Shown piece by piece: positions 7,873 through 41,974 of a stretch of DNA of 64,000 nt. The stretch covers positions 263,572 to 327,571 of the forward strand of contig CAWIAU010000001.1 of the NCBI GenBank assembly GCA_963834265.1. Reading direction: 5' to 3'. Within the stretch, counting starts at the first letter, position 1. Each line of letters begins with the position of its first letter. Source of the stretch: an uncultured bacterium (GTDB taxonomy: Bacteria; Patescibacteriota; Saccharimonadia; Saccharimonadales; 2-12-FULL-41-12). The notes under the pieces were generated by a model. The model saw only the letters and a list, made by a program, of their open reading frames with translations, was not told the origin of the DNA and made no database searches. A program made the translations under genes and the position numbers.

Positions 7873-7883
7873 TATTTTTGATT

Positions 7884-8133: not shown

Positions 8134-8173
8134 ACAGTTGAGAGATATTGATTCTACATTGTTAAATAGCATC

Positions 8174-13162: not shown

Positions 13163-13173
13163 TTTATATAGAA

Positions 13174-15292: not shown

Positions 15293-15496
15293 ATGGCTAA
15301 AGATGATAAAAAAATTAGGATGGATCATAAGGGGCCGCCGCCGGCTTTTGGGTTCTATGTTTTAACTTATATTGGGGCGGCTGTTCACTTCGTTGGCAAT
15401 GTGGATGGGCTTTGGAATATCATAGTGGCACTAGCCAAAGCTGCTGTCTGGCCGGCATTTCTCATCAATAGAATCTTCGAACTCCTAAGAATCTAG
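15293..15496 (+). CDS. small membrane protein (67 aa, 2 predicted TM)
   Basis: RBS GGTGGAGGA lies 9 nt upstream of the ATG. Two hydrophobic segments are FGFYVLTYIGAAVHFVG and IIVALAKAAVWPAFLI. Confidence 0.5.
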   Translation: MAKDDKKIRMDHKGPPPAFGFYVLTYIGAAVHFVGNVDGLWNIIVALAKAAVWPAFLINRIFELLRI

Positions 15497-21800: not shown

Positions 21801-24800
21801 TAACTATTACAGGCACTAACAGTGGCGAAGGCAGTACGCCGGGCCTTAGTGTTACTTACGGATTCGGTGCTAACACCGCCGTACAGGGCAGCACCCAGCT
21901 TACCTGTGCTTCCGGCAGTGGTGATCTGTCCGGTGGCGGCACTGTCATAACTCTGGGCAGCGGCGGTACCTGCGGTGCCATAACCATATCCGAAGCCCCC
22001 GTCTTTGATACCAGCGTTACCACCCCGCTTATTACTTACGGCGGCGCCCTGACCATCCAGACCACCGCTACCGGTGGCGCTGATGATCTGATCTTTAAAA
22101 CCGCCGGCACGGAAGTTATGCGCCTGCTGGAAAACGGCAATATTTATCTGGAGAAAGGCACTAATGATGTCACCATAGCCGTAAATGCTCCCGGTGCCGC
22201 CGCCACCTACACCTTTGACGGAGCCAGCGGAACTATCCTGACCACTGCCAACTACGTTACTAACCTCGACGCTACCTACGTAAACGAATCCCAGTCGCCG
22301 GCCGCCGGCGATGTCTCCGGTTCATTCACAGCCGGTTTCAGTGTTAACGATGTCCAGAACAATGCCGTTGATCTGGGAGCCGAGACAGTCGGGGACTACA
22401 TGGCCAACCTCGGCACCGTAGTCGGATTAACTATTACAGGCACTAACAGTGGCGAAGGCAGTACGCCGGGCCTTAGTGTTACTTACGGATTCGGTGCTAA
22501 CACCGCCGTACAGGGCAGCACCCAGCTTACCTGTGCTTCCGGCAGTGGTGATCTGTCCGGTGGCGGCACTGTCATAACTCTGGGCAGCGGCGGTACCTGC
22601 GGTGCCATAACCATATCCGAAGCCCCCGTCTTTGATACCAGCGTTACCACCCCGCTTATTACTTACGGCGGCGCCCTGACCATCCAGACCACCGCTACCG
22701 GTGGCGCTGATGATCTGATCTTTAAAACCGCCGGCACGGAAGTTATGCGCCTGCTGGAAAACGGCAATATTTATCTGGAGAAAGGCACTAATGATGTCAC
22801 CATAGCCGTAAATGCTCCCGGTGCCGCCGCCACCTACACCTTTGACGGAGCCAGCGGAACTATCCTGACCACTGCCAACTACGTTACTAACCTCGACGCT
22901 ACCTACGTAAACGAATCCCAGTCGCCGGCCGCCGGCGATGTCTCCGGTTCATTCACAGCCGGTTTCAGTGTTAACGATGTCCAGAACAATGCCGTTGATC
23001 TGGGAGCCGAGACAGTCGGGGACTACATGGCCAACCTCGGCACCGTAGTCGGATTAACTATTACAGGCACTAACAGTGGCGAAGGCAGTACGCCGGGCCT
23101 TAGTGTTACTTACGGATTCGGTGCTAACACCGCCGTACAGGGCAGCACCCAGCTTACCTGTGCTTCCGGCAGTGGTGATCTGTCCGGTGGCGGCACTGTC
23201 ATAACTCTGGGCAGCGGCGGTACCTGCGGTGCCATAACCATATCCGAAGCCCCCGTCTTTGATACCAGCGTTACCACCCCGCTTATTACTTACGGCGGCG
23301 CCCTGACCATCCAGACCACCGCTACCGGTGGCGCTGATGATCTGATCTTTAAAACCGCCGGCACGGAAGTTATGCGCCTGCTGGAAAACGGCAATATTTA
23401 TCTGGAGAAAGGCACTAATGATGTCACCATAGCCGTAAATGCTCCCGGTGCCGCCGCCACCTACACCTTTGACGGAGCCAGCGGAACTATCCTGACCACT
23501 GCCAACTACGTTACTAACCTCGACGCTACCTACGTAAACGAATCCCAGTCGCCGGCCGCCGGCGATGTCTCCGGTTCATTCACAGCCGGTTTCAGTGTTA
23601 ACGATGTCCAGAACAATGCCGTTGATCTGGGAGCCGAGACAGTCGGGGACTACATGGCCAACCTCGGCACCGTAGTCGGATTAACTATTACAGGCACTAA
23701 CAGTGGCGAAGGCAGTACGCCGGGCCTTAGTGTTACTTACGGATTCGGTGCTAACACCGCCGTACAGGGCAGCACCCAGCTTACCTGTGCTTCCGGCAGT
23801 GGTGATCTGTCCGGTGGCGGCACTGTCATAACTCTGGGCAGCGGCGGTACCTGCGGTGCCATAACCATATCCGAAGCCCCCGTCTTTGATACCAGCGTTA
23901 CCACCCCGCTTATTACTTACGGCGGCGCCCTGACCATCCAGACCACCGCTACCGGTGGCGCTGATGATCTGATCTTTAAAACCGCCGGCACGGAAGTTAT
24001 GCGCCTGCTGGAAAACGGCAATATTTATCTGGAGAAAGGCACTAATGATGTCACCATAGCCGTAAATGCTCCCGGTGCCGCCGCCACCTACACCTTTGAC
24101 GGAGCCAGCGGAACTATCCTGACCACTGCCAACTACGTTACTAACCTCGACGCTACCTACGTAAACGAATCCCAGTCGCCGGCCGCCGGCGATGTCTCCG
24201 GTTCATTCACAGCCGGTTTCAGTGTTAACGATGTCCAGAACAATGCCGTTGATCTGGGAGCCGAGACAGTCGGGGACTACATGGCCAACCTCGGCACCGT
24301 AGTCGGATTAACTATTACAGGCACTAACAGTGGCGAAGGCAGTACGCCGGGCCTTAGTGTTACTTACGGATTCGGTGCTAACACCGCCGTACAGGGCAGC
24401 ACCCAGCTTACCTGTGCTTCCGGCAGTGGTGATCTGTCCGGTGGCGGCACTGTCATAACTCTGGGCAGCGGCGGTACCTGCGGTGCCATAACCATATCCG
24501 AAGCCCCCGTCTTTGATACCAGCGTTACCACCCCGCTTATTACTTACGGCGGCGCCCTGACCATCCAGACCACCGCTACCGGTGGCGCTGATGATCTGAT
24601 CTTTAAAACCGCCGGCACGGAAGTTATGCGCCTGCTGGAAAACGGCAATATTTATCTGGAGAAAGGCACTAATGATGTCACCATAGCCGTAAATGCTCCC
24701 GGTGCCGCCGCCACCTACACCTTTGACGGAGCCAGCGGAACTATCCTGACCACTGCCAACTACGTTACTAACCTCGACGCTACCTACGTAAACGAATCCC

Positions 24801-27388
24801 AGTCGCCGGCCGCCGGCGATGTCTCCGGTTCATTCACAGCCGGTTTCAGTGTTAACGATGTCCAGAACAATGCCGTTGATCTGGGAGCCGAGACAGTCGG
24901 GGACTACATGGCCAACCTCGGCACCGTAGTCGGATTAACTATTACAGGCACTAACAGTGGCGAAGGCAGTACGCCGGGCCTTAGTGTTACTTACGGATTC
25001 GGTGCTAACACCGCCGTACAGGGCAGCACCCAGCTTACCTGTGCTTCCGGCAGTGGTGATCTGTCCGGTGGCGGCACTGTCATAACTCTGGGCAGCGGCG
25101 GTACCTGCGGTGCCATAACCATATCCGAAGCCCCCGTCTTTGATACCAGCGTTACCACCCCGCTTATTACTTACGGCGGCGCCCTGACCATCCAGACCAC
25201 CGCTACCGGTGGCGCTGATGATCTGATCTTTAAAACCGCCGGCACGGAAAAAATTCGAATATTAGAAAATGGCACACTGGTATTTGGTACTGGTGCCAAC
25301 AGTGCTAATTTGTACTTGTCTGCAAATGACACTCTGAGGACGGATGATCTGTTTGTAGCAGGAGCAGGATTAAGCGTGTTAGCAAATGGTGCTACAATTG
25401 CTGGTGATTTCAGTATCGACGGACTGGTATTTGATCCAACAGGTAATCTTGTGCTAAACGACACCGTGGATATTGGCTCAGCTACAACAGGACTTCGGGT
25501 AAATACGGACGGGTCAATATTCGACATTGATGGTGTTCTTGTTTTAAACGATCAACTAAACCTAGGCTCATCCTCAACAGGTCTATTAATTACTACATCA
25601 GGAATAATTACGGATATTGATGGGGCAAGTGTTGTATTTGGTGAAAACATCACTGTAAATACAGGAGGTATTACCGTAACAGGCAATAGCACTATTAATG
25701 GGACGCTCGGGTCTTTGACCGGCTTGACTGTAATTAGTGGAGGAGCATCGATAAGTGGAGGCTTGAATAATAACAGTGGCGGACTGACTAACGCCGGATC
25801 TATTACAGGAGTAGGCGGTAATATAACAGGATCAGGAAGTATGACTATATCCTCCGGAGCTGCTGCGGCACTGACGCTAGATTCCGGAACAACCGGTGGC
25901 CTGAACATCGGCACCGGCAATAATGCCAAAACCATCAATATCGGCACCGGTACGGCCGGCAACGCTATCAACATCGGTACCAATAACACCACGGCCGACA
26001 CGATCCAGATTGGCTCGGCTCTGGATACGCTGACGCTCACGGGTTCCTCTTTAACTACATTTGTAATCAACGCAATAACCGTAGACGCTACCGAGTTTAA
26101 CCGGCTCGACGGCAAAAACGCAGCACTGGTTGATGAAAATGACTTCATCAGCGGGGACGGAACTGGCGGTACAAGCAATGGGTCCGGATTGGAAGCAGGT
26201 ACCGGTGGAATTGGGCTATTGCAAGGTTGCACCAACAATCAAATTTTGAAATGGGTAGATGCAAGTTCTGTCTGGAACTGCGCGGCTGACGCCACAGGTA
26301 TTTCTGATTCCCGGGTTAAGAAAAATGTCCAAACTGTCGAAGGAGCTATGCTGGATAAAATTAAGGATATTCGGGTAGTAGAATTTGACTATGACTGCAC
26401 CAGCCCGGCGTTTGCTTACCAGCACTGCGACATAGACCACCAAACAGGTGTTATCGCGCAGGAACTTGCTCAAATCTTTCCGGAACTTGTCACCCAGGAT
26501 GAGCACGGCTATTATAGCGTTAGATACGACGCATTAGCCATCTATAACCTCAAAGCCGTGGGAGAACTAGCACGTTCGTTAGATTCTCAAGGTAACGGTA
26601 AGTTTAATAATGTTTCATCAAATTCACTTGTTGTAAAAGGAGATATTATAGCTGGCACAATCCGTGCTGACAGGATAGAAGGCCTGGACTATGTTGGCCG
26701 GTTTGAATCTTTGGAAGAAAGAGTAGACCATCTTGAGAAAAATAATAACTTTCAGAATAATAACTTTGCGGGCACAGTAGAAGTTGGTTCATTGATTGCC
26801 AATAAAGAAGTTGACCTAAAAAATGATGTGCGAATTAACGGTAGCACAGACCTGCAGAGATTAAATGTAAATCTTGCTTTAATCGCCAAAGACTCCTTTG
26901 AAGTGCTAGGAAGATCTACCTTCAAAGAGGCGTCCGGATTCGAGAAAGATGTACATTTTGATGGCCAAATTAACGTGCTTGGTTACACGAATGTCCAGGG
27001 CCTAAGCGTAAACCTTGACTTGATTGTTAAAGGCTCATTGCAGCTCGACGGGCCGGCCACCTTCAAGGAGGCAGTCAAATTCGAGAAAGACGCTGAATTT
27101 GCGGGTAATGTGTCTGTAAAAGGACAGGCCACGTTCAACGGTGATACGGCGGGGTATGCCATCATTAAAAAAGGCGAAAAAAGCCTTGCGATTAAGTTTA
27201 AAAACCCTAAGCCACAAATACCGATCGTTACCATGTCGCTTGGTAATGGCAAGTTTGCCTCCTACAGTTACCAGAATGTAACAAAAGAGGGCTTCGAGAT
27301 TATTCTGGCTAATGCCGCTGACGAAGATCTTAGCTTCTCATGGATTGCTATTCTAACCCAAAGTGAGGAAATTTCTGCTATGCCGTAG
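18827..27388 (+). CDS. giant repetitive fibre/adhesin-like surface protein 1 (2,853 aa) with internal S74-type autoprocessing domain
   Basis: Uninterrupted 8,562-nt ORF. It has an N-terminal signal/anchor (LALVFLLLFLTGVF), 8.76 identical 209-aa repeats, G/T/N-rich repeats, ISDSRVKKNV..GVIAQELAQIFPELV..YSVRYDALAIYNLKA (S74/ICA pattern), and then 361 aa counted from the Ser to the C-terminus. Confidence 0.9.
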   Translation: MLSQRPRFYNLLVRGKSLALVFLLLFLTGVFSYTRTHTPTPVYAATSANINFQARLQSASGAIVPDGNYHMEFKLYTSASGGSAVWTETRSTGNLVRTVNGYLTVNLGSVNAFPSGMNWDQEHWLTMNVGGSGGSPVYDGEMTPRLKLTATPYAFSAGQLRKTLGANTSVLDFLNPTANRTLNLPDQDGTLCVQGSPDCVDVATTGTTATTSSNSGLEIGIDGLRLLGGCSDNQSLKWDATAEEWKCTSGSGSSIGVRESDGSPSMSADVIEFGPSGASDSEFIVTNEGSGVSRIRLGNDVLLLTNYAATLDATYVNESQSPAAGDVSGSFTAGFSVNDVQNNAVDLGAETVGDYMANLGTVVGLTITGTNSGEGSTPGLSVTYGFGANTAVQGSTQLTCASGSGDLSGGGTVITLGSGGTCGAITISEAPVFDTSVTTPLITYGGALTIQTTATGGADDLIFKTAGTEVMRLLENGNIYLEKGTNDVTIAVNAPGAAATYTFDGASGTILTTANYVTNLDATYVNESQSPAAGDVSGSFTAGFSVNDVQNNAVDLGAETVGDYMANLGTVVGLTITGTNSGEGSTPGLSVTYGFGANTAVQGSTQLTCASGSGDLSGGGTVITLGSGGTCGAITISEAPVFDTSVTTPLITYGGALTIQTTATGGADDLIFKTAGTEVMRLLENGNIYLEKGTNDVTIAVNAPGAAATYTFDGASGTILTTANYVTNLDATYVNESQSPAAGDVSGSFTAGFSVNDVQNNAVDLGAETVGDYMANLGTVVGLTITGTNSGEGSTPGLSVTYGFGANTAVQGSTQLTCASGSGDLSGGGTVITLGSGGTCGAITISEAPVFDTSVTTPLITYGGALTIQTTATGGADDLIFKTAGTEVMRLLENGNIYLEKGTNDVTIAVNAPGAAATYTFDGASGTILTTANYVTNLDATYVNESQSPAAGDVSGSFTAGFSVNDVQNNAVDLGAETVGDYMANLGTVVGLTITGTNSGEGSTPGLSVTYGFGANTAVQGSTQLTCASGSGDLSGGGTVITLGSGGTCGAITISEAPVFDTSVTTPLITYGGALTIQTTATGGADDLIFKTAGTEVMRLLENGNIYLEKGTNDVTIAVNAPGAAATYTFDGASGTILTTANYVTNLDATYVNESQSPAAGDVSGSFTAGFSVNDVQNNAVDLGAETVGDYMANLGTVVGLTITGTNSGEGSTPGLSVTYGFGANTAVQGSTQLTCASGSGDLSGGGTVITLGSGGTCGAITISEAPVFDTSVTTPLITYGGALTIQTTATGGADDLIFKTAGTEVMRLLENGNIYLEKGTNDVTIAVNAPGAAATYTFDGASGTILTTANYVTNLDATYVNESQSPAAGDVSGSFTAGFSVNDVQNNAVDLGAETVGDYMANLGTVVGLTITGTNSGEGSTPGLSVTYGFGANTAVQGSTQLTCASGSGDLSGGGTVITLGSGGTCGAITISEAPVFDTSVTTPLITYGGALTIQTTATGGADDLIFKTAGTEVMRLLENGNIYLEKGTNDVTIAVNAPGAAATYTFDGASGTILTTANYVTNLDATYVNESQSPAAGDVSGSFTAGFSVNDVQNNAVDLGAETVGDYMANLGTVVGLTITGTNSGEGSTPGLSVTYGFGANTAVQGSTQLTCASGSGDLSGGGTVITLGSGGTCGAITISEAPVFDTSVTTPLITYGGALTIQTTATGGADDLIFKTAGTEVMRLLENGNIYLEKGTNDVTIAVNAPGAAATYTFDGASGTILTTANYVTNLDATYVNESQSPAAGDVSGSFTAGFSVNDVQNNAVDLGAETVGDYMANLGTVVGLTITGTNSGEGSTPGLSVTYGFGANTAVQGSTQLTCASGSGDLSGGGTVITLGSGGTCGAITISEAPVFDTSVTTPLITYGGALTIQTTATGGADDLIFKTAGTEVMRLLENGNIYLEKGTNDVTIAVNAPGAAATYTFDGASGTILTTANYVTNLDATYVNESQSPAAGDVSGSFTAGFSVNDVQNNAVDLGAETVGDYMANLGTVVGLTITGTNSGEGSTPGLSVTYGFGANTAVQGSTQLTCASGSGDLSGGGTVITLGSGGTCGAITISEAPVFDTSVTTPLITYGGALTIQTTATGGADDLIFKTAGTEKIRILENGTLVFGTGANSANLYLSANDTLRTDDLFVAGAGLSVLANGATIAGDFSIDGLVFDPTGNLVLNDTVDIGSATTGLRVNTDGSIFDIDGVLVLNDQLNLGSSSTGLLITTSGIITDIDGASVVFGENITVNTGGITVTGNSTINGTLGSLTGLTVISGGASISGGLNNNSGGLTNAGSITGVGGNITGSGSMTISSGAAAALTLDSGTTGGLNIGTGNNAKTINIGTGTAGNAINIGTNNTTADTIQIGSALDTLTLTGSSLTTFVINAITVDATEFNRLDGKNAALVDENDFISGDGTGGTSNGSGLEAGTGGIGLLQGCTNNQILKWVDASSVWNCAADATGISDSRVKKNVQTVEGAMLDKIKDIRVVEFDYDCTSPAFAYQHCDIDHQTGVIAQELAQIFPELVTQDEHGYYSVRYDALAIYNLKAVGELARSLDSQGNGKFNNVSSNSLVVKGDIIAGTIRADRIEGLDYVGRFESLEERVDHLEKNNNFQNNNFAGTVEVGSLIANKEVDLKNDVRINGSTDLQRLNVNLALIAKDSFEVLGRSTFKEASGFEKDVHFDGQINVLGYTNVQGLSVNLDLIVKGSLQLDGPATFKEAVKFEKDAEFAGNVSVKGQATFNGDTAGYAIIKKGEKSLAIKFKNPKPQIPIVTMSLGNGKFASYSYQNVTKEGFEIILANAADEDLSFSWIAILTQSEEISAMP
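19757..25249 (+). repeat. in-frame tandem repeat, 8.76 x 627 bp, no differences seen between copies
   Basis: The landmark ACGCTACCTA recurs at 19761, 20388, 21015 and onward. GGCACGGAA at 20225 and 25241 are 8 x 627 bp apart. All translated units are identical. Confidence 0.95.
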
Positions 27389-27451
27389 AGAAGACTTGAT
27401 TAATTGTTGTTATTTTACTATGCTAAACATAAGAAAAAAGAAGGGAACACT

Positions 27452-28264: not shown

Positions 28265-28669
28265 ATGTCTAAAAATTCAGCTCCCAACCAACTAAAACCC
28301 CTAACCATACATCCTGAAACTGCCGTAGAGCTTTATGGAGCCGGCGTCCGCCGACTTCGCAAACCTAAACCGATGACTACCCCTAATGGACTTGATACTA
28401 ACTCTTTAGATTTCCGTGGCGTTCGTGCTGCCATGGACGTTGTCGGCGTATTTCCCCATACATATGATGCTGACGGCCGTCGCAATCCAGTAGATCCAAA
28501 TGAAGTAAAAACTCATATGGACTCGAGCTTGGCCACAATTAGAGAAGCTGGCCGCGTTCCGTTGGCTGATGATTTCGTTGGAGGCTATAAACGTATGACA
28601 GAAGCGTTCACTCGTCCACAAGAGCCAATAACACCCGCAGAACAAATTCACATAACGCAACGGCAATAA
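28265..28669 (+). CDS. hypothetical protein (134 aa)
   Basis: ATG ORF directly behind the promoter. No recognisable family. Confidence 0.5.
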   Translation: MSKNSAPNQLKPLTIHPETAVELYGAGVRRLRKPKPMTTPNGLDTNSLDFRGVRAAMDVVGVFPHTYDADGRRNPVDPNEVKTHMDSSLATIREAGRVPLADDFVGGYKRMTEAFTRPQEPITPAEQIHITQRQ

Positions 28670-29680
28670 GCCTAAAACTTTTAGCACAATGTTTATCTCC
28701 AGATAAGTACTTACTTATTGATGACGAGCTTTAACCCAACAACGGGCGGGCTTTTGTATTCTCAGCTCCTCCGAAGTGACAAAAATCTTATAGATCAAAA
28801 CGTCTTATACTTGGTGTTGCGGGAAGAGTTTTTCAGAATCGTCGTGATTTAGACGGTCCAGCTGGGCAAAATCTACCAATGCCAGCCTAAGCCAGTTTGT
28901 GGGCAAGGATGTGGATTGATTGAGCGGCGTTCTAGAAGGTCGTACAATAATGTGGTTTACAATTTAGCAAAATGTTATTTGGTGAATACCTTTTGTGGTA
29001 TAACCGTAAATTCGGGTATACCAAATAATGTATAATTTTGGAAATCCATAATTTATTTAAAATTGATTTTGAGCTACTTTATTATGAATTTTAGTGTCCG
29101 GAATTTGTATTTTCGATATCTTAAATTCTAATTTCTTACCAGAAATAATTACAACGTTAAGATTTCGCAGTCTATTATTTTCGATCATTATCAAAATATC
29201 CATTTAATTCTGAGCAATTTTGTAATTAGCAACGTCCTCTACCGAGCTTAGTAGAGTAGTCTGTGGAAAAATCATAAAAAAAGACATTGTATAATATACT
29301 TTCTGATTCCGCAGATTGAACCAAACGATTATATACCTGAAGTAAATATACAAACACTTGAGGCTAAGTACTCCTATCTGTTATGGAATCTTTTGCCAAG
29401 TTCGAAACCAACCTAAACAACGGGTCATAGAAATAAAATTAAATACATGTTGAGTACAGCTGAAAATTCCTGCCGGAACAGGAATAATAGGTCAGTTCTG
29501 TCGTATAGGGTAGTCTGTGTACAAAAATATTTACCTCTGTTATGGAATGTAATGCTAATGTTTTCGTCTGAGTACAAAAGTAGTACATTGGTATTGCATA
29601 GGTCACCCCTAATGCTTACACTAAGCATTAGCTTTCATAACAGATTAAGCAGCATAAAGTTGAACACAAAATAAACTCAA

Positions 29681-32600
29681 ATGTATCAAGAAACTCAAAC
29701 CAAAAGCCGTTCCAGAGTGTACGTTACCGTAGGTGATGCGGCGGAGCTATTAGGTGTTTCTATCGATACTGTCCGACGTTGGGAAAAGAGCGGCAAACTG
29801 CATGCTAAACGATTAGATGGCAAGAATCGATACTTCCCCAAAGATGAATTAGAGCAATTCAGAGCTCATCAGCCCCTGTCTACAACAGAAGTGGCTAAGC
29901 GACTTAAGACCTCTGCTTCCAGCGTACGTCGTCTCGAAGCTAGTGGCCAGATAACGGCTGACCGTGCTGAGAACGGAAAGCGTCTTTACTCTTTGGCAAG
30001 TATAGTTGACTATTTGGAAAGTAAATCTGCTCCATTGCAACCAGCAATATCAGATAAACAGGAATTAGCGTCAGGTGTAGCCCTGAATCAGGTAACACCG
30101 ATGCCGGCACTGACTATCGCACCGCCACCGCGTCAACATACCCCGCGTCATGGATTAAAGCATCATTTACAGCAGCCTAAGAAGTTATGGGCTACTCATT
30201 CCGGCAGATTAAATTACCATATTTTTCAAAAAGTAATCATCTATAGTGCTACGGCATGTGTCTCCGTAGTGATGATATTGACGCTATTCTTTCTGATGTT
30301 TCCGGGAACTGCCCGCACGACATTTTATAATCAATCCCATAACAGTGGTAAACAGTTTGTTTCGAAACAAGCTGACGGTCTCTTAGTACGGGCCTTCAAG
30401 CCCTTTACAAATGCAGCCCTGGGCGTTGTCGAGGTAGTTAACCCGGAAGTCCGCAATACTATTCAGCCTAGGGCCATAGATGACGTGAATGAAGTATTCG
30501 CGCCTGACTCGCAGGGAAATATTATCACCAGGTACACCTTTAGCCCGCCGAACTCATCTTATCTGAAGATACCAGATCAGGGGTTAGTTACAAATCTGAA
30601 TAGTGAATTTGTCGGAGGCTATAAACCGGGCGAAAAGAAAGGAGATCTGGCTATCTTACCTCTGGGAGGTGATCAGCTTAAAGATAAGTCACTTAATGGT
30701 GACCAGCTGGCCGATGGAGCAATTAAGCTTAGCCATCTTTCTCCTACTTTGATAGCTTCTCTGAAGAGCGGAGGCACAGGAGGAAGTACTTTTGTAAGCG
30801 GTGCTGGCAGCGCCGGACCAGCAGGCCCATCAGGAGTTAACGGGGCGGCTGGAGCTGCAGGTGCCAACGGTGCTCCCGGTTCTCAAGGAGTAGCAGGTCC
30901 AGCCGGAGCAGCCGGACCTGCTGGATCACAAGGAGCTAACGGGGCACCGGGTGCTCCAGGAGCACAAGGCCCGACTGGTCCGCAAGGACCTCCAGGCGCT
31001 GGAGCTACGATAGCCTTGCAAGAGTCTGACGGTAGTCCGCTGGTTAGCGGCGTATCAAACATACAGTTTGGACCCACCAGCAACTCTTCTGACGAGTTTA
31101 TCCTGACAGACTTAACAGGAGGTCAGGTACGAATACAACTGGGCACTACGGTGCTTCTAACAACGAATTACACTACTACTCTGGATCCTATATATCTCAA
31201 TATTGGAGAATCTCCCGGGATCGGAGATATTACGGGCAGCTTCAGCGGGGGTTTGCAGGTAGCACCTGATGCGGTGGCGCTAGGTACCGATACCACTGGT
31301 AATTATTTAACTACTCTATCTGGCAGCACGGGTCTAATTGTCAGTGGATCGGGTTCAGAAAATGCGGCAGCTAGCATTGCTTTAGACGTAGTTACTACTG
31401 GTACAACAGGATTGTCCAGTGCCAACTCCGGGCTTGAGTTGGGTCCCGACGGTCTGCGTTTGCTTGGTGGATGCGCAACAAACCATGTATTGAAATGGAA
31501 CGGAACTACTTGGGCATGTGCTACCGATAACAGTAGTAGCGCTGCTGATGTTAAGGAAAATGGTGTAATTATTACTCCCACAGCAACAGCTATAGATTTT
31601 TTCGGTTCAGATTTTAATGTAACCAACAATGTTACGCAGGCAAATATAGCATTAGATTATATTAACTCGGGAATTACTCGTCGCACGGGGGCAGAGATAA
31701 TAAGCGGCAACTGGGCATTTAATGATAATAGCTTTACGCTGCAAGATAATGCTGACTCTAGTAAAAAACTTGCAATAGAATTATCGGGAATTACAACAGG
31801 AACAACGCGTACTTTAACAGCCCCAAACGCCAGCGGGACCATCATTAGCACGGGGAATTTAACTGACATTGTAAATGTGGGTACGCTCACAAGCGGTGTT
31901 TGGCAGGGTTCTGTTGTAGCCGTGCAGTATGGGGGAACAGGGGCCAACACCTTTACGTCTAACGGATTGCTATATGGAAATGGCAACAGTGCTGTACAGG
32001 CCACATCCGCGGGCACGGCCGGACAATTATTAGTTGCAAATGCTAGCAGTGTACCAACGTTTGCTACTCTATCGGGTGATGCGACCTTATCTGGCGCCGG
32101 CCTGCTAACATTAGCTAACTCGGGCGTTACAGCAAATACTTATGGAAGCTCAACTCAGGTACCGGTTTTTGCGGTTGACTCAAAAGGTAGAATCACTAAT
32201 GTAACTAATACAACAATAACAGGGGTCGCACCGGGTGGAACCGCCGGAGGTGATTTGAGTGGAACTTATCCCAACCCAAGCGTTTCAAGAATCAATGGAG
32301 TCGCTCTTGGTAGTACAACGGCAACGGGAGGAAATTTGCTGCTTGCCAATGGTACAAGCTGGGTCAGTCAAGCTCTTTCGGGAGATTTAAGTGTAAATGG
32401 GGCAGGCGTTGCCTCGATAGCAAACAACGCCATCAGTACCTCAAAAATTTTGGACGCCAATGTAACAAACATTAAATTAGCAAACTCCTCCTTAACAGTT
32501 ATGGCTGGAACAGGATTATCTGGCGGAGGAGCTATAAGTTTAGGTGGCACGACTACGCTTAACTTAGCTAATACGGCTGTATCGGCAGGGAGTTACGGCA

Positions 32601-35600
32601 GTAGCTCCGCGGTCCCTACTTTTACTGTAGATTCCCAGGGACGGCTGACAATGGCTGGTAATACAACCTTAGCTAATGCGGGACTGCAGAATTCAAGTTT
32701 GACCTTAACAGCGGGCAATGGACTAGCCGGGGGAGGAAGCGTTGCTTTAGGCGCATCTACAAGCCTTAACGTTCAGTATGGTGCTATCGCGAATACATCT
32801 GTCCAAGGCAATACTCAGATTACTTGTACGCCTGGTGCTGGTAATTTGTCCGGAGGGGGTACGGTTATAACACTGGGCTCAGGTGGAGCATGTGGTGCTA
32901 TTAATACGAATGCAGCGGTAAATTTTGCTACAAGTGTTACAACTCCACTACTTACGTCCATTGGTCCGATTACAATACAATCTGATCCCAGTGTTGGTAG
33001 TGACGACATAATATTCAATAGTGCCGGTAGCGAGATTTTTCGTTTACTTGAAACAGGGGAATTTAAGTTTGAACGCGGCTCAAACGATGCGTTCTTTTCT
33101 ATTGCAACTCCTAGTGGCGCGCCTGCTACTTATACTTTTTCCGGCGTATCCGGAACTGTCCTTACTAGTTCAAATTTCAGCAGTAGCTTAGACAGTTCTT
33201 ATGTGAACATAGGCGAATCCCCGTCAGCTGGCGACATTAACGGATCATTTGGGGGAGGTTTAAGCATTGGATCAGACGCAGTTGCTTTAGGGACAGACAC
33301 TACAGGCAACTATCTGGCTACACTTAGCGGAGGCACAGGATTGACAGTTACTGGATCTGGCAGCGAAAGTGCTGCGGTGACTTTAGCGCTCGATGTAATA
33401 ACTACAGGAACAACAGCTACTACAAACTCTAACTCTGGCTTAGAACTCGGTAGTGACGGGCTAAGATTGCTGGGGGGTTGTGCTTCTAATGAGATACTCA
33501 AATGGAATGGATCAACTTGGGCTTGCGCTGCAGATAATGGTACCGGAGCTGCTCCCACACTTCAAGAGAATTATGACAATGATCCCAATGGAGCGAATGT
33601 GATAATTGGATTGTCCAATGTTGACGGGGGTATATTTATTCGTGATAACGCGTCGCCAATTGGCGGTAACTTATTTGCCGTACAAAGCGACGGAGGTAGC
33701 ACTACTTATTTAGGTATCACTGCAAGTGGATCCAGCGTATCGGGAACTTTCTCGGCGACCGGTGCTATTAATGGCGCCACCATTTCTGGTGGCTCTCTAA
33801 ACTCTACTTCGGTTAATGGTCTTAGTGTTTCGGGGGGCATTATAACTGTGGGTACCTGGAATGGTACTGCTCTAACAGACTCTTATGTTTCTGATACTCT
33901 AACCTCAAGTATTTTCATAGGTTCAGGAAGTACATCAAATGCTGTAGATTTAGCTAGTGCCGAAGTAGCCGGCAGCCTGGCCGACGGAAATGTCTCAGAT
34001 ACCTTAACCATAGGTGCTTCCGGCAGCGTGGCTGACGGAGCTTTAAGTGTCAACGTGACTAAACTGGGGACTGCCATAGACCTGGCTACAGCTGAGGTAG
34101 CCGGTAATCTGAGAGCTAATAATCTGCAGAGTGCCGGAGCCGACCTTGGCGCGACTAATGTTAACATTGACCTGAGCAATACCAACGGAAGCTTCGTCAC
34201 CAACTTAACCGTAGACGGTACTATTACTGCCGCTACCTTTGCCGGCAACCTGACAGGTAATGTCACCGGCAACGCTTCAACCGCTACCGCTCTGGCTAAC
34301 AATCCGACAGATTGCGGAGCCAACCAGTTCGCCATTACCATTGCCGCCAGCGGTAACCTGACCTGCGCCGCGCTGACTGATGCCGATATACCGAATAACA
34401 TTACAATTGATCTGGCTGCCAACGCCACCACAGCTGTTAATCTGGTTGGTTCCGGCAGTACCACCAATGCCGTAGATCTGGCTACAGCTGAGGTATCCGG
34501 CAACTTACGGGCTAACAACCTGCAGAACGCCGCCGCCGACCTGGGAGGAGCTGACGTCAACATTAACCTCAGCAATACCAACGGAAGCTTCGTGACTAAT
34601 CTGACGGTTGACGGCACCATCACCGCCGCCACCTTTGCCGGCGCTCTTACGGGCAATGTCACCGGTAATGTCACCGGCAACGCTTCAACCGCTACCGCTC
34701 TGGCTAACAATCCGACAGATTGCGGAGCCAACCAGTTCGCCATTACCATTGCCGCCAGCGGTAACCTGACCTGCGTGTCCTTAACAGATCTGGATATACC
34801 GAACAACATTACAATTGATCTGGCTGCCGCCGCTACCGCGCTGGCTAACAACCCCACTGACTGTAGCGCTGATACTTACGCTACTACTATCGCTGCCAGC
34901 GGTAACCTGACTTGTGCTTCCATTACCGACGCTTCATTATCTGCTAACGTCACTAAACTGGGCAGTAGTATCCAAAACAGTGAAGTAGACGACGACCTGA
35001 CTATTAGTGCTTCCGGCAGCGTGGCTGACGGAGCTTTAAGTGTCAACGTGACTAAACTGGGGACTGCCATAGACCTGGCTACAGCTGAGGTAGCCGGTAA
35101 TCTGAGAGCTAATAATCTGCAGAGTGCCGGAGCCGACCTTGGCGCGACTAATGTTAACATTGACCTGAGCAATACCAACGGAAGCTTCGTCACCAACTTA
35201 ACCGTAGACGGTACTATTACTGCCGCTACCTTTGCCGGCAACCTGACAGGTAATGTCACCGGCAACGCTTCAACCGCTACCGCTCTGGCTAACAATCCGA
35301 CAGATTGCGGAGCCAACCAGTTCGCCATTACCATTGCCGCCAGCGGTAACCTGACCTGCGCCGCGCTGACTGATGCCGATATACCGAATAACATTACAAT
35401 TGATCTGGCTGCCAACGCCACCACAGCTGTTAATCTGGTTGGTTCCGGCAGTACCACCAATGCCGTAGATCTGGCTACAGCTGAGGTATCCGGCAACTTA
35501 CGGGCTAACAACCTGCAGAACGCCGCCGCCGACCTGGGAGGAGCTGACGTCAACATTAACCTCAGCAATACCAACGGAAGCTTCGTGACTAATCTGACGG

Positions 35601-38600
35601 TTGACGGCACCATCACCGCCGCCACCTTTGCCGGCGCTCTTACGGGCAATGTCACCGGTAATGTCACCGGCAACGCTTCAACCGCTACCGCTCTGGCTAA
35701 CAATCCGACAGATTGCGGAGCCAACCAGTTCGCCATTACCATTGCCGCCAGCGGTAACCTGACCTGCGTGTCCTTAACAGATCTGGATATACCGAACAAC
35801 ATTACAATTGATCTGGCTGCCGCCGCTACCGCGCTGGCTAACAACCCCACTGACTGTAGCGCTGATACTTACGCTACTACTATCGCTGCCAGCGGTAACC
35901 TGACTTGTGCTTCCATTACCGACGCTTCATTATCTGCTAACGTCACTAAACTGGGCAGTAGTATCCAAAACAGTGAAGTAGACGACGACCTGACTATTAG
36001 TGCTTCCGGCAGCGTGGCTGACGGAGCTTTAAGTGTCAACGTGACTAAACTGGGGACTGCCATAGACCTGGCTACAGCTGAGGTAGCCGGTAATCTGAGA
36101 GCTAATAATCTGCAGAGTGCCGGAGCCGACCTTGGCGCGACTAATGTTAACATTGACCTGAGCAATACCAACGGAAGCTTCGTCACCAACTTAACCGTAG
36201 ACGGTACTATTACTGCCGCTACCTTTGCCGGCAACCTGACAGGTAATGTCACCGGCAACGCTTCAACCGCTACCGCTCTGGCTAACAATCCGACAGATTG
36301 CGGAGCCAACCAGTTCGCCATTACCATTGCCGCCAGCGGTAACCTGACCTGCGCCGCGCTGACTGATGCCGATATACCGAATAACATTACAATTGATCTG
36401 GCTGCCAACGCCACCACAGCTGTTAATCTGGTTGGTTCCGGCAGTACCACCAATGCCGTAGATCTGGCTACAGCTGAGGTATCCGGCAACTTACGGGCTA
36501 ACAACCTGCAGAACGCCGCCGCCGACCTGGGAGGAGCTGACGTCAACATTAACCTCAGCAATACCAACGGAAGCTTCGTGACTAATCTGACGGTTGACGG
36601 CACCATCACCGCCGCCACCTTTGCCGGCGCTCTTACGGGCAATGTCACCGGTAATGTCACCGGCAACGCTTCAACCGCTACCGCTCTGGCTAACAATCCG
36701 ACAGATTGCGGAGCCAACCAGTTCGCCATTACCATTGCCGCCAGCGGTAACCTGACCTGCGTGTCCTTAACAGATCTGGATATACCGAACAACATTACAA
36801 TTGATCTGGCTGCCGCCGCTACCGCGCTGGCTAACAACCCCACTGACTGTAGCGCTGATACTTACGCTACTACTATCGCTGCCAGCGGTAACCTGACTTG
36901 TGCTTCCATTACCGACGCTTCATTATCTGCTAACGTCACTAAACTGGGCAGTAGTATCCAAAACAGTGAAGTAGACGACGACCTGACTATTAGTGCTTCC
37001 GGCAGCGTGGCTGACGGAGCTTTAAGTGTCAACGTGACTAAACTGGGGACTGCCATAGACCTGGCTACAGCTGAGGTAGCCGGTAATCTGAGAGCTAATA
37101 ATCTGCAGAGTGCCGGAGCCGACCTTGGCGCGACTAATGTTAACATTGACCTGAGCAATACCAACGGAAGCTTCGTCACCAACTTAACCGTAGACGGTAC
37201 TATTACTGCCGCTACCTTTGCCGGCAACCTGACAGGTAATGTCACCGGCAACGCTTCAACCGCTACCGCTCTGGCTAACAATCCGACAGATTGCGGAGCC
37301 AACCAGTTCGCCATTACCATTGCCGCCAGCGGTAACCTGACCTGCGCCGCGCTGACTGATGCCGATATACCGAATAACATTACAATTGATCTGGCTGCCA
37401 ACGCCACCACAGCTGTTAATCTGGTTGGTTCCGGCAGTACCACCAATGCCGTAGATCTGGCTACAGCTGAGGTATCCGGCAACTTACGGGCTAACAACCT
37501 GCAGAACGCCGCCGCCGACCTGGGAGGAGCTGACGTCAACATTAACCTCAGCAATACCAACGGAAGCTTCGTGACTAATCTGACGGTTGACGGCACCATC
37601 ACCGCCGCCACCTTTGCCGGCGCTCTTACGGGCAATGTCACCGGTAATGTCACCGGCAACGCTTCAACCGCTACCGCTCTGGCTAACAATCCGACAGATT
37701 GCGGAGCCAACCAGTTCGCCATTACCATTGCCGCCAGCGGTAACCTGACCTGCGTGTCCTTAACAGATCTGGATATACCGAACAACATTACAATTGATCT
37801 GGCTGCCGCCGCTACCGCGCTGGCTAACAACCCCACTGACTGTAGCGCTGATACTTACGCTACTACTATCGCTGCCAGCGGTAACCTGACTTGTGCTTCC
37901 ATTACCGACGCTTCATTATCTGCTAACGTCACTAAACTGGGCAGTAGTATCCAAAACAGTGAAGTAGACGACGACCTGACTATTAGTGCTTCCGGCAGCG
38001 TGGCTGACGGAGCTTTAAGTGTCAACGTGACTAAACTGGGGACTGCCATAGACCTGGCTACAGCTGAGGTAGCCGGTAATCTGAGAGCTAATAATCTGCA
38101 GAGTGCCGGAGCCGACCTTGGCGCGACTAATGTTAACATTGACCTGAGCAATACCAACGGAAGCTTCGTCACCAACTTAACCGTAGACGGTACTATTACT
38201 GCCGCTACCTTTGCCGGCAACCTGACAGGTAATGTCACCGGCAACGCTTCAACCGCTACCGCTCTGGCTAACAATCCGACAGATTGCGGAGCCAACCAGT
38301 TCGCCATTACCATTGCCGCCAGCGGTAACCTGACCTGCGCCGCGCTGACTGATGCCGATATACCGAATAACATTACAATTGATCTGGCTGCCAACGCCAC
38401 CACAGCTGTTAATCTGGTTGGTTCCGGCAGTACCACCAATGCCGTAGATCTGGCTACAGCTGAGGTATCCGGCAACTTACGGGCTAACAACCTGCAGAAC
38501 GCCGCCGCCGACCTGGGAGGAGCTGACGTCAACATTAACCTCAGCAATACCAACGGAAGCTTCGTGACTAATCTGACGGTTGACGGCACCATCACCGCCG

Positions 38601-41341: not shown

Positions 41342-41974
41342 ATGCCGAGTATTCACGTGGAAGAGCCAATACCAGAGAAAGAACCAAATGAGCCGAAATT
41401 GGAAACTCCGGATAAAGCAATAAAATCCGAACCAGAGGAAATTACACCGGAAACTAAATCTGAATCTGTGGCAGAACCAGCCACTGCGTCACCGGTTGCG
41501 CAAGCACCAGTCACTGGGCGTTCGCATTTGGACTACAAGAAGTTTATTTTTCCCGGAAGCTTTGTGATACTGCTGGCTCTTATTATTCTGGTTATTAGTC
41601 TTGTCAATGACAGGAGTCAGTTGAAGCAGGAGAATTCGCGGCTTTCAAGCCAAACGCAGAAATCTACCCAGGATCAGAGCAATAAAGAAGCAGAAGATCT
41701 CAAAAAAGAGATCAGCCAATATTTGGAATTGCCGGCAGATGAAGTACCTACTGTAGCTACCGTGGTGGATGCTAACAAAGTAAAAGGGCAGAGCTTCTTT
41801 GTGAACGCACAGAATGGCGATAAAGTATTGTTGTTTGCTACAAGTGGCAAAGCCATTCTGTACAGACCAGGTACTAAAAAAATTGTCGAAGTTTCTCCGA
41901 TTAATTTAAATCAAAACCAACAATCAGGCACTCCACCTCCGTCCACTACTCTCACCCCCAAAACGAGCCGATGA
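41342..41974 (+). CDS. single-pass membrane protein, partner of giant 2 (paralog of 27452-27922)
   Basis: RBS AAGGGAG. Acidic N-terminus. TM segment FIFPGSFVILLALIILVISLV. C-terminal domain ..PTVATVVDANKVKGQSFFVNAQNGDKVLLFATSGKAILYRPGTKKIVEVSPINL. Confidence 0.75.
   Translation: MPSIHVEEPIPEKEPNEPKLETPDKAIKSEPEEITPETKSESVAEPATASPVAQAPVTGRSHLDYKKFIFPGSFVILLALIILVISLVNDRSQLKQENSRLSSQTQKSTQDQSNKEAEDLKKEISQYLELPADEVPTVATVVDANKVKGQSFFVNAQNGDKVLLFATSGKAILYRPGTKKIVEVSPINLNQNQQSGTPPPSTTLTPKTSR

Follow-up and report, generated by a model that had tools for sequence, protein, structure and literature searches.

In ToxR, CadC and TcpP, membrane-bound one-component regulators of proteobacteria, the N-terminal DNA-binding domain lies in the cytoplasm and is connected by a flexible linker and a single transmembrane (TM) helix to an input part outside the membrane. 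These proteins bind DNA while still membrane-bound, and their activity depends on oligomerisation. Their DNA-binding domain is a single OmpR-type winged helix (Trans_reg_C), and their outside parts are small periplasmic sensors. BldC and Xis, which are small soluble single-domain proteins without the coiled coil and effector domain of MerR, bind direct-repeat arrays head-to-tail. TraN from Enterococcus pIP501 carries two MerR/excisionase-like helix-turn-helix (HTH) units in one chain, arranged as an internal dimer; it is small and soluble, has no TM helix or ectodomain and, according to the title of its structure entry (PDB 4p0z), binds double-stranded DNA. Finally, in the eukaryotic transcription factor MYRF/MrfA, a membrane protein of type II, one chain holds a DNA-binding domain, a TM helix and a trimerising, self-cleaving Peptidase_S74 domain of the phage-tailspike kind.

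Here, we analysed a gene of a Patescibacteria bacterium that shares features with each of these systems. Within the window, by which we mean the whole 64-kb stretch of DNA analysed, the ORF at 29681..41272 (+ strand, as are all features below) encodes a giant surface-fibre protein of 3,863 aa with the order tandem HTH, linker, TM helix, giant fibre. An earlier note had placed tandem HTH domains, tethered to the membrane, at the N-terminus of this fibre. Pfam, NCBIfam, AlphaFold2 (AF2) and a hydropathy scan all bear this out, and the coordinates it gave, 29717-30302, are right and correspond to aa 13-207. The layout is that of ToxR, CadC and TcpP, and by analogy we propose that this protein also binds DNA while membrane-bound, with an activity that would depend on oligomerisation. 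In contrast to those regulators, it has two tandem MerR/HTH_17 domains, with no Pfam match to Trans_reg_C, and its outside part is a fibre of 3,650 residues.

HTH domain 1 (aa 14-63; 29720..29869) is a MerR/HTH_17 winged helix by Pfam, NCBIfam, two family alignments (A1 and A2), AF2 and Foldseek. Domain 2 (aa 66-116; 29876..30028) is its paralogue, as judged by Pfam, alignment A1, AF2 and pairwise comparison, with 32% identity over 38 aa in a 53-aa register. The earlier note had allowed that these segments might fail against DNA-binding profiles; instead, both scored well above the curated cut-offs. Within the first 300 aa, HTH_17 (PF12728; E 1.7e-20, 73.4 bits against a cut-off of 27) matched two stretches, as did MerR (E 9.9e-20, 70.5 bits against 28.2), and the NCBIfam profile 'excise' (TIGR01764) also gave two matches (55 bits against 28.8). 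The best-scoring Pfam stretch is aa 14-62, and the second domain was placed at aa 66-116 by the AF2 model, in which both domains exceed a pLDDT of 90. The recognition region of domain 1, LGVSIDTVRRWEKSGK..R.DGKNRYF, is almost invariant across the family, and domain 2 follows the pattern L..S.S..RR....G.......R.Y. Both retain the MerR DNA-binding signature (..RRW/L E..G......R.Y). In the aligned N-terminal region, which is otherwise 26-40% identical, the invariant columns are those of the recognition regions.

Structure comparison led to the same group of proteins. The best Foldseek matches of the HTH model were DNA-bound MerR-family domains, RacA, BldC (6ama, 6amk) and Pukovnik Xis (4j2n), the last two with TM-scores of 0.79-0.84 and rmsd of 1.5-2.1 A, and they also included the tandem-HTH protein TraN. 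A sequence search of solved structures gave one weak match, to a CarH-like MerR HTH (E 0.008). The fold is that of BldC and Xis (TM-score ~0.8, rmsd 1.5 A, 27-32% identity), and the canonical MerR coiled-coil and effector domain is likewise absent: AF2 predicts disorder over aa 117-174, and Pfam finds no further cytoplasmic domain. The differences are that two domains are joined in one chain and that this chain is tethered to the membrane. The two units are also placed differently from those of TraN (rmsd ~11 A over 112 columns). We predict that the HTH pair binds double-stranded DNA, a prediction supported indirectly by conserved TGCATAGG boxes upstream of the gene, described below.

The HTH pair is joined to the membrane by a disordered linker (aa 117-184; 30029..30232), to which AF2 assigns a pLDDT of 44-63 over aa 117-174. 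The earlier note had described about 70 residues rich in K, R and H before a hydrophobic helix, and the composition agrees: aa 116-184 hold K5, R3 and H6 against D1 and E1, the membrane-proximal half is the K/R/H-rich one, and the final 36 residues contain no acidic residue at all. Across the family, the linker has a median length of 65 aa (range 27-149). It leads into VIIYSATACVSVVMILTLFFLMF (aa 185-207; 30233..30301), the only TM-grade segment that the hydropathy scan found in 3,863 residues, which largely coincides with a confident AF2 helix (aa 175-206, pLDDT >90). The same scan found no hydrophobic stretch N-terminal of the HTH pair, in agreement with the earlier statement that no signal-peptide-like segment precedes it. 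Its appeal to the positive-inside rule, which would put the HTH pair in the cytoplasm, holds modestly in this protein, with six K+R in the 30 aa before the helix and four in the 30 aa after it, and clearly across 168 family members (3.46 before vs 2.17 after; Wilcoxon p = 3e-15). Hydropathy, the AF2 model and the family charge bias strongly support a single signal-anchor helix with the N-terminus inside, which would make this a type-II (N-in, C-out) membrane protein with a cytoplasmic HTH pair.

The architecture is widespread. At E<=1e-30, 249 protein clusters (50% identity) matched, and nearly all of the best 150 of these have HTH motifs 53 aa apart and one TM helix at about aa 140-260, with tails reaching 5,145 aa in the longest proteins. 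Relatives are encoded in at least 125 species genomes, nearly all of them labelled as Patescibacteria (Saccharimonadia, Microgenomates, Andersenbacteria) or, implausibly, as 'Gammaproteobacteria'. Within the collections searched, we found the family only in Patescibacteria. A second protein search with the alignment as query gave at least 13 matches and added little.

This spread bears on whether the fusion is real. Start codons lying downstream of the HTH region, which the earlier note had named as a possible refutation, or a fusion created by frameshift or misassembly, would undo the architecture, and in-frame ATG/GTG codons do occur at aa 141, 197 and 198. However, the HTH-fibre fusion recurs in frame in 80 loci that were assembled independently and in over 140 representative proteins, and in many relatives' loci the ORF continues unbroken past 2,000 aa. 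Conservation is strongest on the HTH part itself, and the annotated ATG is preceded by both a promoter-like block and the box. Upstream of the start codon in relatives, one usually meets an in-frame stop after no more than ~60 nt (~150 nt at the most), and thus the HTH pair is their true N-terminus. We regard an artefact of start codon or assembly as effectively refuted.

We then considered the DNA upstream of the gene, which the earlier note had treated as a 1-kb leader. It is not a leader: a conserved promoter-like block lies 60-90 nt before the ATG, and Rfam gave no match in the upstream 1 kb even at E<=1. A putative -35, TTGCAT (29594-29599), is followed after 17 nt by a putative -10, TACACT (29617..29622); TTG is invariant in 16 aligned Saccharimonadia-type upstream regions, and TA.ACT is invariant in alignment A4. 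Based on the conserved TTG-N19-TAnACT spacing, the transcript would start ~50 nt before the ATG. This site was missed by a simple promoter scan, since TTGCAT matches TTGACA at only 3/6 positions, and the putative 17-nt spacer is not the over-long 19-20 bp spacer of MerR-type promoters. Overlapping the putative -35 is the box TGCATAGG (29595-29602; together 29594..29602), whose single exact copy in the window lies 86 nt upstream of the ATG. Conservation in alignment A4 is highest over a further box at the putative transcript start, AGCATTAGCTTTCATAACAGA (29624..29644), for which the consensus of relatives is TGCATAAGCTTTCTTAACAGA; this consensus contains a second, diverged TGCATAAG-type box, which in the window reads AGCATTAG.

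The transcript-start box also has an inverted copy, the TCTGTTATGGAAT... motif at 29536..29556, so that 29624-29644 and 29536-29556 form a 21-nt inverted repeat with 86% complementarity. The earlier note had suggested this repeated motif as a possible operator. It is real in the window, where it recurs exactly at 29377-29389 and none of the shuffled sequences held as many as two copies; it is not conserved upstream in 11 of 12 relatives, in which the inverted copy is non-significant (p ~0.007 in the window), and we rejected it as a conserved operator. We also dropped an occurrence of TGCATAAG at 16693, ahead of a 100-aa ORF, where there is no promoter-like context.

In contrast to TCTGTTATGGAAT, the TGCATAGG box is a property of the family. 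Over the 200 nt upstream of family genes, its density is 2.90/kb vs 0.40/kb in other non-ORF DNA and 0.029/kb in ORFs of the same 726 kb (Poisson p = 2.5e-25). The 8-mer shows a 38-fold enrichment in these 200 nt, and one of 7.3-fold relative to the other non-ORF DNA of the same loci. With at most one mismatch, the upstream 200 nt hold at least one box in 70 of 78 loci and at least two in 53 of 78 (10% and 1% in shuffled sequences), counts in which the upstream regions of close kin are not independent samples. The copies usually number two or more and lie 20-22 nt apart, direct or inverted, so that palindromes and also direct repeats 22 nt apart occur, the latter resembling the arrays that BldC and Xis bind. 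They sit at the -35 and the transcript start, or downstream of the promoter. Two independently retrieved loci also carry the box, which was not found upstream of the HTH-less paralogue in the window. We infer that the TGCATAGG box is the target of this protein's HTHs. In Saccharimonadia, the box may owe some of its conservation to that of the promoter, since it overlaps the putative -35.

A metagenome scan for CCTATGCA-N12-TGCATAGG proved uninformative as a test of specificity: a tandem-HTH gene adjoined the match in 4 of 80 loci, and generic, unrelated palindromes dominate the other matches. The informative matches were the four that adjoin an HTH gene, three of which have a GGTTAAYC-type spacer, and in addition locus L097, which has a similar spacer beside a small partner gene of the kind described below.

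The box might instead have nothing to do with the HTHs, being an RNA element that hides the ribosome-binding site (RBS) or another regulator's site, while the HTHs engage other DNA or a protein. Membrane-tethered HTHs can serve in protein binding, as in RodZ, which binds MreB. In Microgenomates, the right arm of the palindrome (..ATAGGa/t, which contains AGG) lies 6-12 nt before the ATG, the palindrome ending 6 nt before it, and could double as the RBS within a hairpin that hides it; moreover, the L097 palindrome stands upstream of the promoter of an HTH-less gene. However, among 129 non-consensus pairs between the palindrome arms, 7 are compensated, 15 are kept by wobble and 107 are broken. 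This lack of compensatory change favours a protein site over an RNA helix, and the direct-repeat variants are unable to form hairpins, so we judge the hairpin reading unlikely. The box also occupies a different place, at the promoter, in Saccharimonadia, it has no Rfam match, it co-occurs with the HTH module whatever the ectodomain, and both HTHs keep their DNA-binding signature in invariant columns. Overall, a box unrelated to the HTHs seems improbable to us.

The range of ectodomains is itself informative. The HTH pair and TM helix are fused to dCache_1 placed between TM helices (L081), to SH3_3 (L063, L064 and P0125), to LytR_C (P0099) and to a 10-TM protein (P0138), and in P0017 eight MerR HTHs precede the TM helix. 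As the same module joins SH3b, dCache_1, LytR_C and polytopic parts, it has the pattern of a cytoplasmic DNA-binding output shared by membrane-bound one-component regulators with swappable outside parts. The earlier note had called the HTH module an add-on. That describes its relation to the HTH-less paralogue in this genome, while the HTH-TM-fibre fusion as such is old and widespread (125 species, 249 clusters).

The same note had left two roles open, the fibre as sensor of a one-component regulator or the HTH pair as an anchor of the fibre base to the nucleoid. In the latter case, the HTH pairs would hold fibre to nucleoid, or chromosome to envelope, without a transcriptional role, much as in RacA-type anchors. 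Foldseek matches to RacA-DNA complexes and weak NCBIfam RacA matches fit this idea, as do the eight HTHs of P0017, which suggest multivalent holding of DNA. Cells of this group are tiny, and their nucleoid lies against the membrane. Yet RacA-type anchors follow their MerR-like HTH with a coiled coil that binds a polar protein, and the AF2 model shows neither a coiled coil nor a partner region of DivIVA type following the HTHs here. Such anchors also use many chromosomal sites, whereas the box is concentrated at the family's own promoters rather than spread along the DNA. An anchor explains neither this promoter box nor the fusions to ligand-sensing dCache, SH3b (SH3_3) and LytR_C domains, all of which speak for the sensor, and we consider it unlikely.

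Outside the membrane, the chain begins with a juxtamembrane module (aa 208-372; 30302..30796) that is conserved in alignment A1 with the pattern ..KPF..AL..SSYLKIPDQGLVxNLNSE..G..PG...GDLAILP. It has no Pfam match, and the AF2 model of aa 200-372 is too poor for a fold search (pLDDT 50.6). A collagen-like Gly-X-Y stretch follows (aa 379-437; 30815..30991), seen in the translation as a GAAGAAGANGAPGSQG.. run and matched by Pfam Collagen at 26.6 bits, slightly below the 27.2 cut-off. Within the fibre shaft, at 33883..39771, a unit of 993 nt (331 aa) is repeated in tandem about six times with hardly any change; here antisense ORFs recur at a 993-nt period, BLAST matches recur every 331 aa (aa 1755, 2086, 2417, 2748 and 3079) and the GC content is raised. 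Beyond it lie a Peptidase_S74 intramolecular-chaperone, self-cleaving domain (aa 3399-3461; 39875..40063; Pfam E 1.2e-13, 51.6 bits against a cut-off of 22) and a C-terminal domain with a weak match to H-type lectins (aa 3797-3851; 41069..41233; H_lectin 19.4 bits against 24), which is 43% identical to the C-terminus of the paralogue. The collagen-like and S74 domains suggest that the fibre is probably trimeric.

A shaft of collagen-like or repeat modules followed by Peptidase_S74 recalls the tail fibres and endosialidases of phages, and the paralogue shares this organisation. Unlike phage fibres, this protein is encoded by a chromosomal cellular gene, is anchored in the membrane, bears a DNA-binding head at its N-terminus and continues for ~400 residues after S74. 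The paralogue (18827..27388) shares the fibre modules, S74 and the C-terminus, and has no HTH; a hydropathy scan and sequence comparison verify the earlier description of its N-terminus as a plain signal/anchor. The HTH-fibre gene is followed by one for a small TM-anchored partner protein (41342..41974; 210 aa), a homologue of the ORF at 27404-27922 that follows the paralogous fibre gene (46% identity over 102 aa, E 3e-30). Partner genes also follow HTH-fibre genes in L009 and L077, and in L097 the TGCATAGG palindrome, with the family-type spacer, precedes one.

The S74 domain invites comparison with MYRF, in which S74/ICA lies in the cytoplasm between an Ndt80-type DNA-binding domain and the TM helix, and cleavage frees the factor. 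The S74 domain here contains ISDSRLK, with a Ser...Lys pair five residues apart, the spacing of the S578/K583 dyad of MYRF (PMC3742443). However, it lies outside, across the membrane from the HTHs, which are of the unrelated MerR type, and could process only the fibre tip. Because it stands ~3,190 residues beyond the TM helix, it is unable to free the HTHs.

Release could nevertheless come about by another route. If the fibre were pulled or shed, for instance when the cell meets a host, the stub might become accessible to a site-2 protease, in the manner of Notch or RsgI, and the freed HTH pair would then act at TGCATAGG promoters chromosome-wide. This reading shares its architecture with the one we prefer. 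It would make use of the conserved juxtamembrane module directly after the TM helix and of a long disordered tether like those of intramembrane-proteolysis substrates, and boxes do occur at other genes, at the density given above for other non-ORF DNA. RsgI has the same single-pass N-in topology, a juxtamembrane outside domain and long outside parts, and offers a precedent in the force-dependent signalling proposed to act via SEA-like domains (PMC10556640); it binds a sigma factor, not DNA. Against release, no cleavage site or SEA-like fold was recognised in the juxtamembrane region, the AF2 model of which is unusable, and the only recognisable self-cleaving domain is the distant S74. No site-2 protease was found among the scanned genes of the window or the conserved upstream neighbours, nor was there a universal upstream partner among the loci compared, where synteny was at clade level only (an HTH_17 antitoxin with a PIN toxin, and ATP synthase genes). 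Release followed by action across the chromosome is, in our estimation, unlikely.

Collectively, we favour, with moderate confidence, a membrane-tethered autoregulator in which fibre-driven clustering controls binding to the protein's own promoter. The HTH pair, still membrane-bound, would bind TGCATAGG-type boxes on or next to this promoter, and probably also boxes at a small number of further envelope genes, for instance that of the small partner. Binding strength would be set by the number of HTH pairs brought together, and trimerisation or assembly of the fibre outside would cluster them, so that the cell could gauge, and feed back on, the production of a very costly fibre. The sign of this regulation would be repression, as suggested by boxes that cover the -35 and the start of the transcript, or lie downstream of the promoter and ahead of the ATG. 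A more speculative and rather unlikely extension is that the fibre acts as a contact or force sensor, with host engagement, by pulling on the fibre or removing it, altering the clustering of three HTH pairs or causing their proteolytic release, and so switching a small TGCATAGG envelope regulon. If true, this would be direct fibre-to-gene signalling of a Notch/MYRF-like kind in ultra-small episymbiotic bacteria that otherwise have few regulators.

A full-text search found no description of this architecture within the searchable literature, and a preprint on giant genes makes no mention of HTH or MerR. This looks like an undescribed membrane-bound gene regulator with a fibre as its outside part. 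With it, the membrane-bound one-component regulators would gain a class of MerR type with tandem domains, and it is a bacterial protein with the three parts of eukaryotic MYRF (DNA-binding domain, TM helix and S74) in another order. Patescibacteria (the Candidate Phyla Radiation) make up a large share of bacterial diversity, live attached to other cells and have very small genomes with few recognised regulators. In at least 125 of their species, proteins of this family carry a DNA-binding head that a single membrane helix connects to surface structures or sensor domains, and the TGCATAGG boxes supply a candidate DNA target and, with it, a concrete, testable model of how the envelope may be linked to gene expression.

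The gene under study, an 11.6-kb ORF on the forward strand (29681-41272), encodes a fibre protein of 3,863 residues. Within its first 300 residues, two stretches match the Pfam families HTH_17 (E 1.7e-20) and MerR (E 9.9e-20) far over cut-off, and the excisionase model TIGR01764 likewise finds two, confirming the tandem HTH domains that the earlier note had proposed. The two units (HTH1, residues 14-63; HTH2, residues 66-116) are 32% identical in a 53-residue register, and an AlphaFold2 model of residues 1-215 folds both as winged helices at pLDDT above 90 (residues 11-116), followed by a disordered stretch (residues 117-174) and a confident long helix (residues 175-206). By hydropathy scan, residues 185-207 are the sole membrane-grade segment of the entire protein, and the linker before them is as basic as the earlier note described, with 14 K/R/H against 2 D/E. 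That note also placed the HTH pair in the cytoplasm. In the fibre protein the positive-inside charge bias is small, with 6 K+R in the 30 residues before the helix and 4 in the 30 after, but across 168 family members it is clear (3.46 before and 2.17 after, p = 3e-15). Given this bias and the collagen-like, Peptidase_S74 (S74) and lectin-like modules of the outside part, an N-in, C-out orientation is well supported, and we consider the architecture and topology described here very probably correct.

A paralogous fibre gene (18827-27388; 2,853 residues) begins with a plain signal/anchor and no HTH, as previously noted, and shares with the HTH-headed protein its fibre modules, S74 domain and C-terminus. 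In the S74 domain, a self-cleaving trimerising chaperone, the Ser-Lys spacing is that of the catalytic dyad in endosialidases and MYRF. About 400 residues follow the domain, so it is not C-terminal (residues 3399-3863; 2485-2853 in the paralogue), and both fibres end in a weak H-type-lectin-like domain (39875-41272 covers S74 to the end). Because so much lies beyond S74, self-cleavage would detach a sizeable, possibly functional fibre tip. The shaft (about 33883-39771) consists of about six near-identical tandem repeats of 993 nt (331 aa), each yielding a spurious 324-aa antisense ORF, with a GC content of 0.54, where nearby sequence has 0.40-0.48. Their period exceeds 500, which is why Tandem Repeats Finder did not pick them up.

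Searching with residues 1-350 returned proteins, 28-48% identical, whose parts come in the same order, and a profile run against 1.84 billion representatives yielded 249 clusters at E<=1e-30. In nearly all of the best 150, the spacing of the two HTH motifs is exactly 53 residues and a single membrane segment falls within residues 140-260; many of them are 1,000-5,145 residues long. A one-genome-per-species scan found a relative in 125 species, the named ones almost all Patescibacteria (Saccharimonadia, Daviesbacteria, Levybacteria, Woesebacteria, Andersenbacteria, Microgenomates), and the closest relatives of the gene come from Saccharimonadia genomes. Many third-party bins that carry the gene (for example at loci L018, L021 and L033) are titled 'uncultured Gammaproteobacteria', a label that looks implausible and is probably wrong.

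A true start downstream of the HTHs, or a frameshift artefact, would turn the fusion into an error of reading. In the 80 loci that we kept, no stop interrupts the frame between the HTHs and the end of the membrane segment, and many stay open for over 2,000 residues; upstream of the start, the nearest in-frame stop usually lies within about 60 nt and at most ~150 nt away. To the extent that sequence allows, both explanations are thus ruled out. In the family, the columns that do not vary are those of the HTH recognition regions, LGVSIDTVRRW.K.G...R.DGKNR.F in HTH1 and L..S.S..RR....G.......R.Y in HTH2, which we take to match the MerR DNA-binding signature. The recognition helices include R32, R33 and W34 in HTH1 and R83 and R84 in HTH2. 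Source annotations call the relatives merely 'excisionase family DNA binding protein' or 'hypothetical protein', and a full-text literature search found no published description of the tandem-HTH/TM/fibre architecture. These proteins form a widespread family of Patescibacteria, not described so far, of probable membrane-tethered tandem-MerR-type regulators; the member studied here carries a giant fibre and has a conserved candidate operator at its own promoter.

Searching solved structures by sequence alone gave nothing close. By Foldseek, the best PDB matches of the HTH pair are the DNA-complexed MerR-family domains of HiNmlR, MtaN and CadR, and also RacA-DNA; BldC-DNA aligns with a TM-score of about 0.8 and an rmsd of 1.5 A over 50 residues at 27-32% identity, mycobacteriophage Xis is among the matches, and so is TraN of Enterococcus, itself a two-HTH internal dimer. 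Since no coiled-coil or effector domain follows the HTHs in the model of residues 1-215, we class them as MerR-like binders reduced to the minimum, as in BldC and Xis, but with two copies on one chain, and the units qualify as HTH_17/MerR-like domains of that kind. Canonical MerR regulators have both a coiled coil and an effector domain; the fibre protein has neither, its putative promoter spacer is 17 nt, and it is not a member of that class. ToxR/CadC-type one-component regulators are closest in working principle, but their defining feature is an OmpR-type domain, which the fibre protein lacks, so it is not one of these either. That the head (the HTH pair plus TM helix) binds DNA is, in our judgement, distinctly probable.

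The head is not confined to fibres. The fibre version is its commonest form, including fusions to collagen plus S74 fibres (proteins P0042 and P0163), and relatives join the same head to bacterial SH3 domains, the proteins being short but complete at about 300 residues (L063, L064, P0125), to LytR_C (P0099) or to a ten-helix membrane protein (P0138). P0017, a metagenome protein of 623 aa, has eight MerR-type HTH units, arranged as four tandem pairs, and then one TM helix at about residue 501. At locus L081 (5977-10050, MAG JALYPT010000038.1), the head is followed by seven TM helices, dCache_1 and two further TM helices, and the gene carries the same upstream box as other family genes; this relative is a one-component sensor bound to the membrane that uses the same head. 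Signal-output modules are typically recognised by their fusion to classic extracellular sensor domains. Such a fusion is the strongest comparative argument that the head is the DNA-binding output of membrane-bound one-component regulators, and it favours the first of two readings in the earlier note, in which the fibre is the outside part of such a regulator. The second, an anchoring of the fibre base to the nucleoid or to DNA, would be a solely structural role like that of RacA, and it accounts neither for the sensor-domain fusions nor for a box specific to these genes.

This box emerged from k-mer counts over 79 upstream regions as TGCATAGG / CCTATGCA. The 200 nt before each gene (16.5 kb in all) hold 48 copies of it, against 53 in the other 710 kb, a 38-fold enrichment; relative to other non-ORF DNA of the same loci the enrichment is 7.3-fold (2.90 and 0.40 per kb, Poisson p = 2.5e-25), and relative to ORF DNA 100-fold. 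With one mismatch allowed, 70/78 loci have at least one box and 53/78 at least two, compared with 10% and 1% in shuffled controls. Two loci fetched by a different route are also boxed (L001 at -49 and -27, L002 at -15). The box is present whatever the outside part, dCache and SH3 forms included, and is absent upstream of the HTH-less paralogue.

Its arrangement varies. The usual Microgenomates form is a palindrome, ACCTATGCATTGGTTAACCAATGCATAGGT, in which aCCTATGCA-ttGgtTAAcCAA-TGCATAGGt has a fixed 12-nt spacer and sits downstream of a canonical TTGACA/TATAAT promoter and upstream of the ATG. Six other loci (L014, L041, L006, L020, L017, L001) carry two or three boxes in direct orientation at a 22-nt spacing. 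The Saccharimonadia form has one box over an invariant TTG located 17 nt before an invariant TA.ACT, and a second, TGCATAAG, follows at once, opening a conserved block, ATGCATAAGCTTTCTTAACAGA. We infer from this conservation that the three elements are the -35, the -10 and the transcript start. In the window, the putative -35 with the conserved TTG falls at 29594-29599, the only exact copy of TGCATAGG in all 64 kb at 29595-29602, the putative -10 with TA.ACT at 29617-29622 and, by alignment of relatives, the transcript-start block at 29624-29644. A simple promoter scan did not list the TTGCAT site, which matches TTGACA at only three positions. Transcription is predicted to start near 29629-29631; with the ATG at 29681, the leader would be about 50 nt, not the 1 kb supposed earlier. 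The ~900 nt of spacer DNA between ORF 28265-28669 and the putative promoter (28670-29590) have low GC (0.40), no convincing ORF and no Rfam match.

The earlier note had suggested another motif, TCTGTTATGGAAT, as the operator. Its repetition is real, with two exact copies in the window, but it is not found upstream of relatives; it is an inverted copy of the transcript-start block, in an arrangement peculiar to the window. Inverted copies of the block lie upstream of the promoter (29377-29389 and 29536-29556) and inside the coding region (30334-30358). The pair 29536-29556/29624-29644 brackets the promoter (21 nt, 86% complementary) and is not seen in relatives.

If the box acted as an RNA helix, changes in one palindrome arm should be matched in the other. 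Instead, arm changes leave 107 broken pairs against 7 compensated and 15 wobble pairs, direct-repeat boxes cannot pair, the element is placed differently relative to the promoter in different clades, and an Rfam search of it gave no match. These patterns make a DNA site bound by a protein the likelier reading, although the Microgenomates element may have an RNA role, as the right arm of its palindrome may double as a ribosome-binding site.

Both fibre genes are followed by homologous small membrane-anchored proteins (27404-27922 and 41342-41974; 46% identity, E 3e-30) with a conserved C-terminal block, PTVATV.DA.K..Q.FF.NA.NGDKVL....KAILY.P..KIVEV.PIN, and no Pfam family. This small partner also directly follows HTH-fibre genes in L009 (~6213-6455) and L077 (~11481-11798). 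Most matches in a metagenome scan for the palindrome are unrelated palindromes. One, in L097, is a TGCATAGG palindrome with the family-type spacer, just upstream of the TTGACA promoter of a small-partner homologue (7351-7929; 48% identity, E 3e-26). Other boxes away from the genes' own upstream regions precede predicted secreted or anchored proteins. This small sample hints at a small envelope regulon.

The window has the look of a Patescibacteria (CPR) chromosome. Its rRNA genes (region 2285-3754, 8060-8573, 9161-12892 and 13050-13164) are unlinked: the 16S (2285-3754) and 23S (9161-12892) genes are 5.4 kb apart, separated by ORFs and two opposite-strand tRNAs. The 23S gene spans 3,732 nt, about 800 nt more than its 2,925-nt model, and its insertion matches no intron family at Rfam gathering thresholds. 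The stretch from the rRNA genes to the first fibre gene holds a Fic/DOC-family gene (14010-15158) and an AAA_33/zeta-toxin-like kinase gene (15485-15949). Among relatives, a toxin-antitoxin-like pair (a single-HTH_17 protein and a PIN-domain protein) is a recurrent divergent neighbour at 14-16 loci, located in Microgenomates loci L012, L015, L064 and about 12 more on the opposite strand, at a distance of 100-1,500 nt before the HTH-TM gene; L064 also has direct repeats of ACCTATGCATT (4579-4620) just past the pair's 3' end.

We propose that the HTH pair binds the box because the two co-occur and the recognition helices are invariant, which is a correlation. Autoregulation by the head through TGCATAGG boxes is, in our judgement, slightly more likely than not. 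A cytoplasmic head would bind the boxes at its own promoter and, as these lie over the -35 and transcript start or between promoter and ATG, would most simply repress. The main rival in the same frame is that the head is released by intramembrane proteolysis once the fibre is pulled or lost, in the manner of Notch or RsgI; scans of the window genes and the conserved upstream neighbours found no protease partner, and the juxtamembrane AlphaFold2 model was too poor for a fold search. Eukaryotic MYRF has the same set of DNA-binding domain, membrane helix and S74 domain (PMC3742443), but its release mechanism cannot apply here, as the S74 domain of the fibre protein lies on the other side of the membrane, about 3,190 residues beyond the TM helix. 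Since the HTHs are the first part of the protein made, they could conceivably also bind in cis while transcription and translation are coupled. For a head that stays tethered, the outside part is expected to trimerise, which would gather three HTH pairs beneath each assembled fibre and give them a much higher avidity for a box array spaced 20-22 nt. The assembled product would thereby feed back onto its gene, an arrangement that would suit a gene of 11.6 kb.
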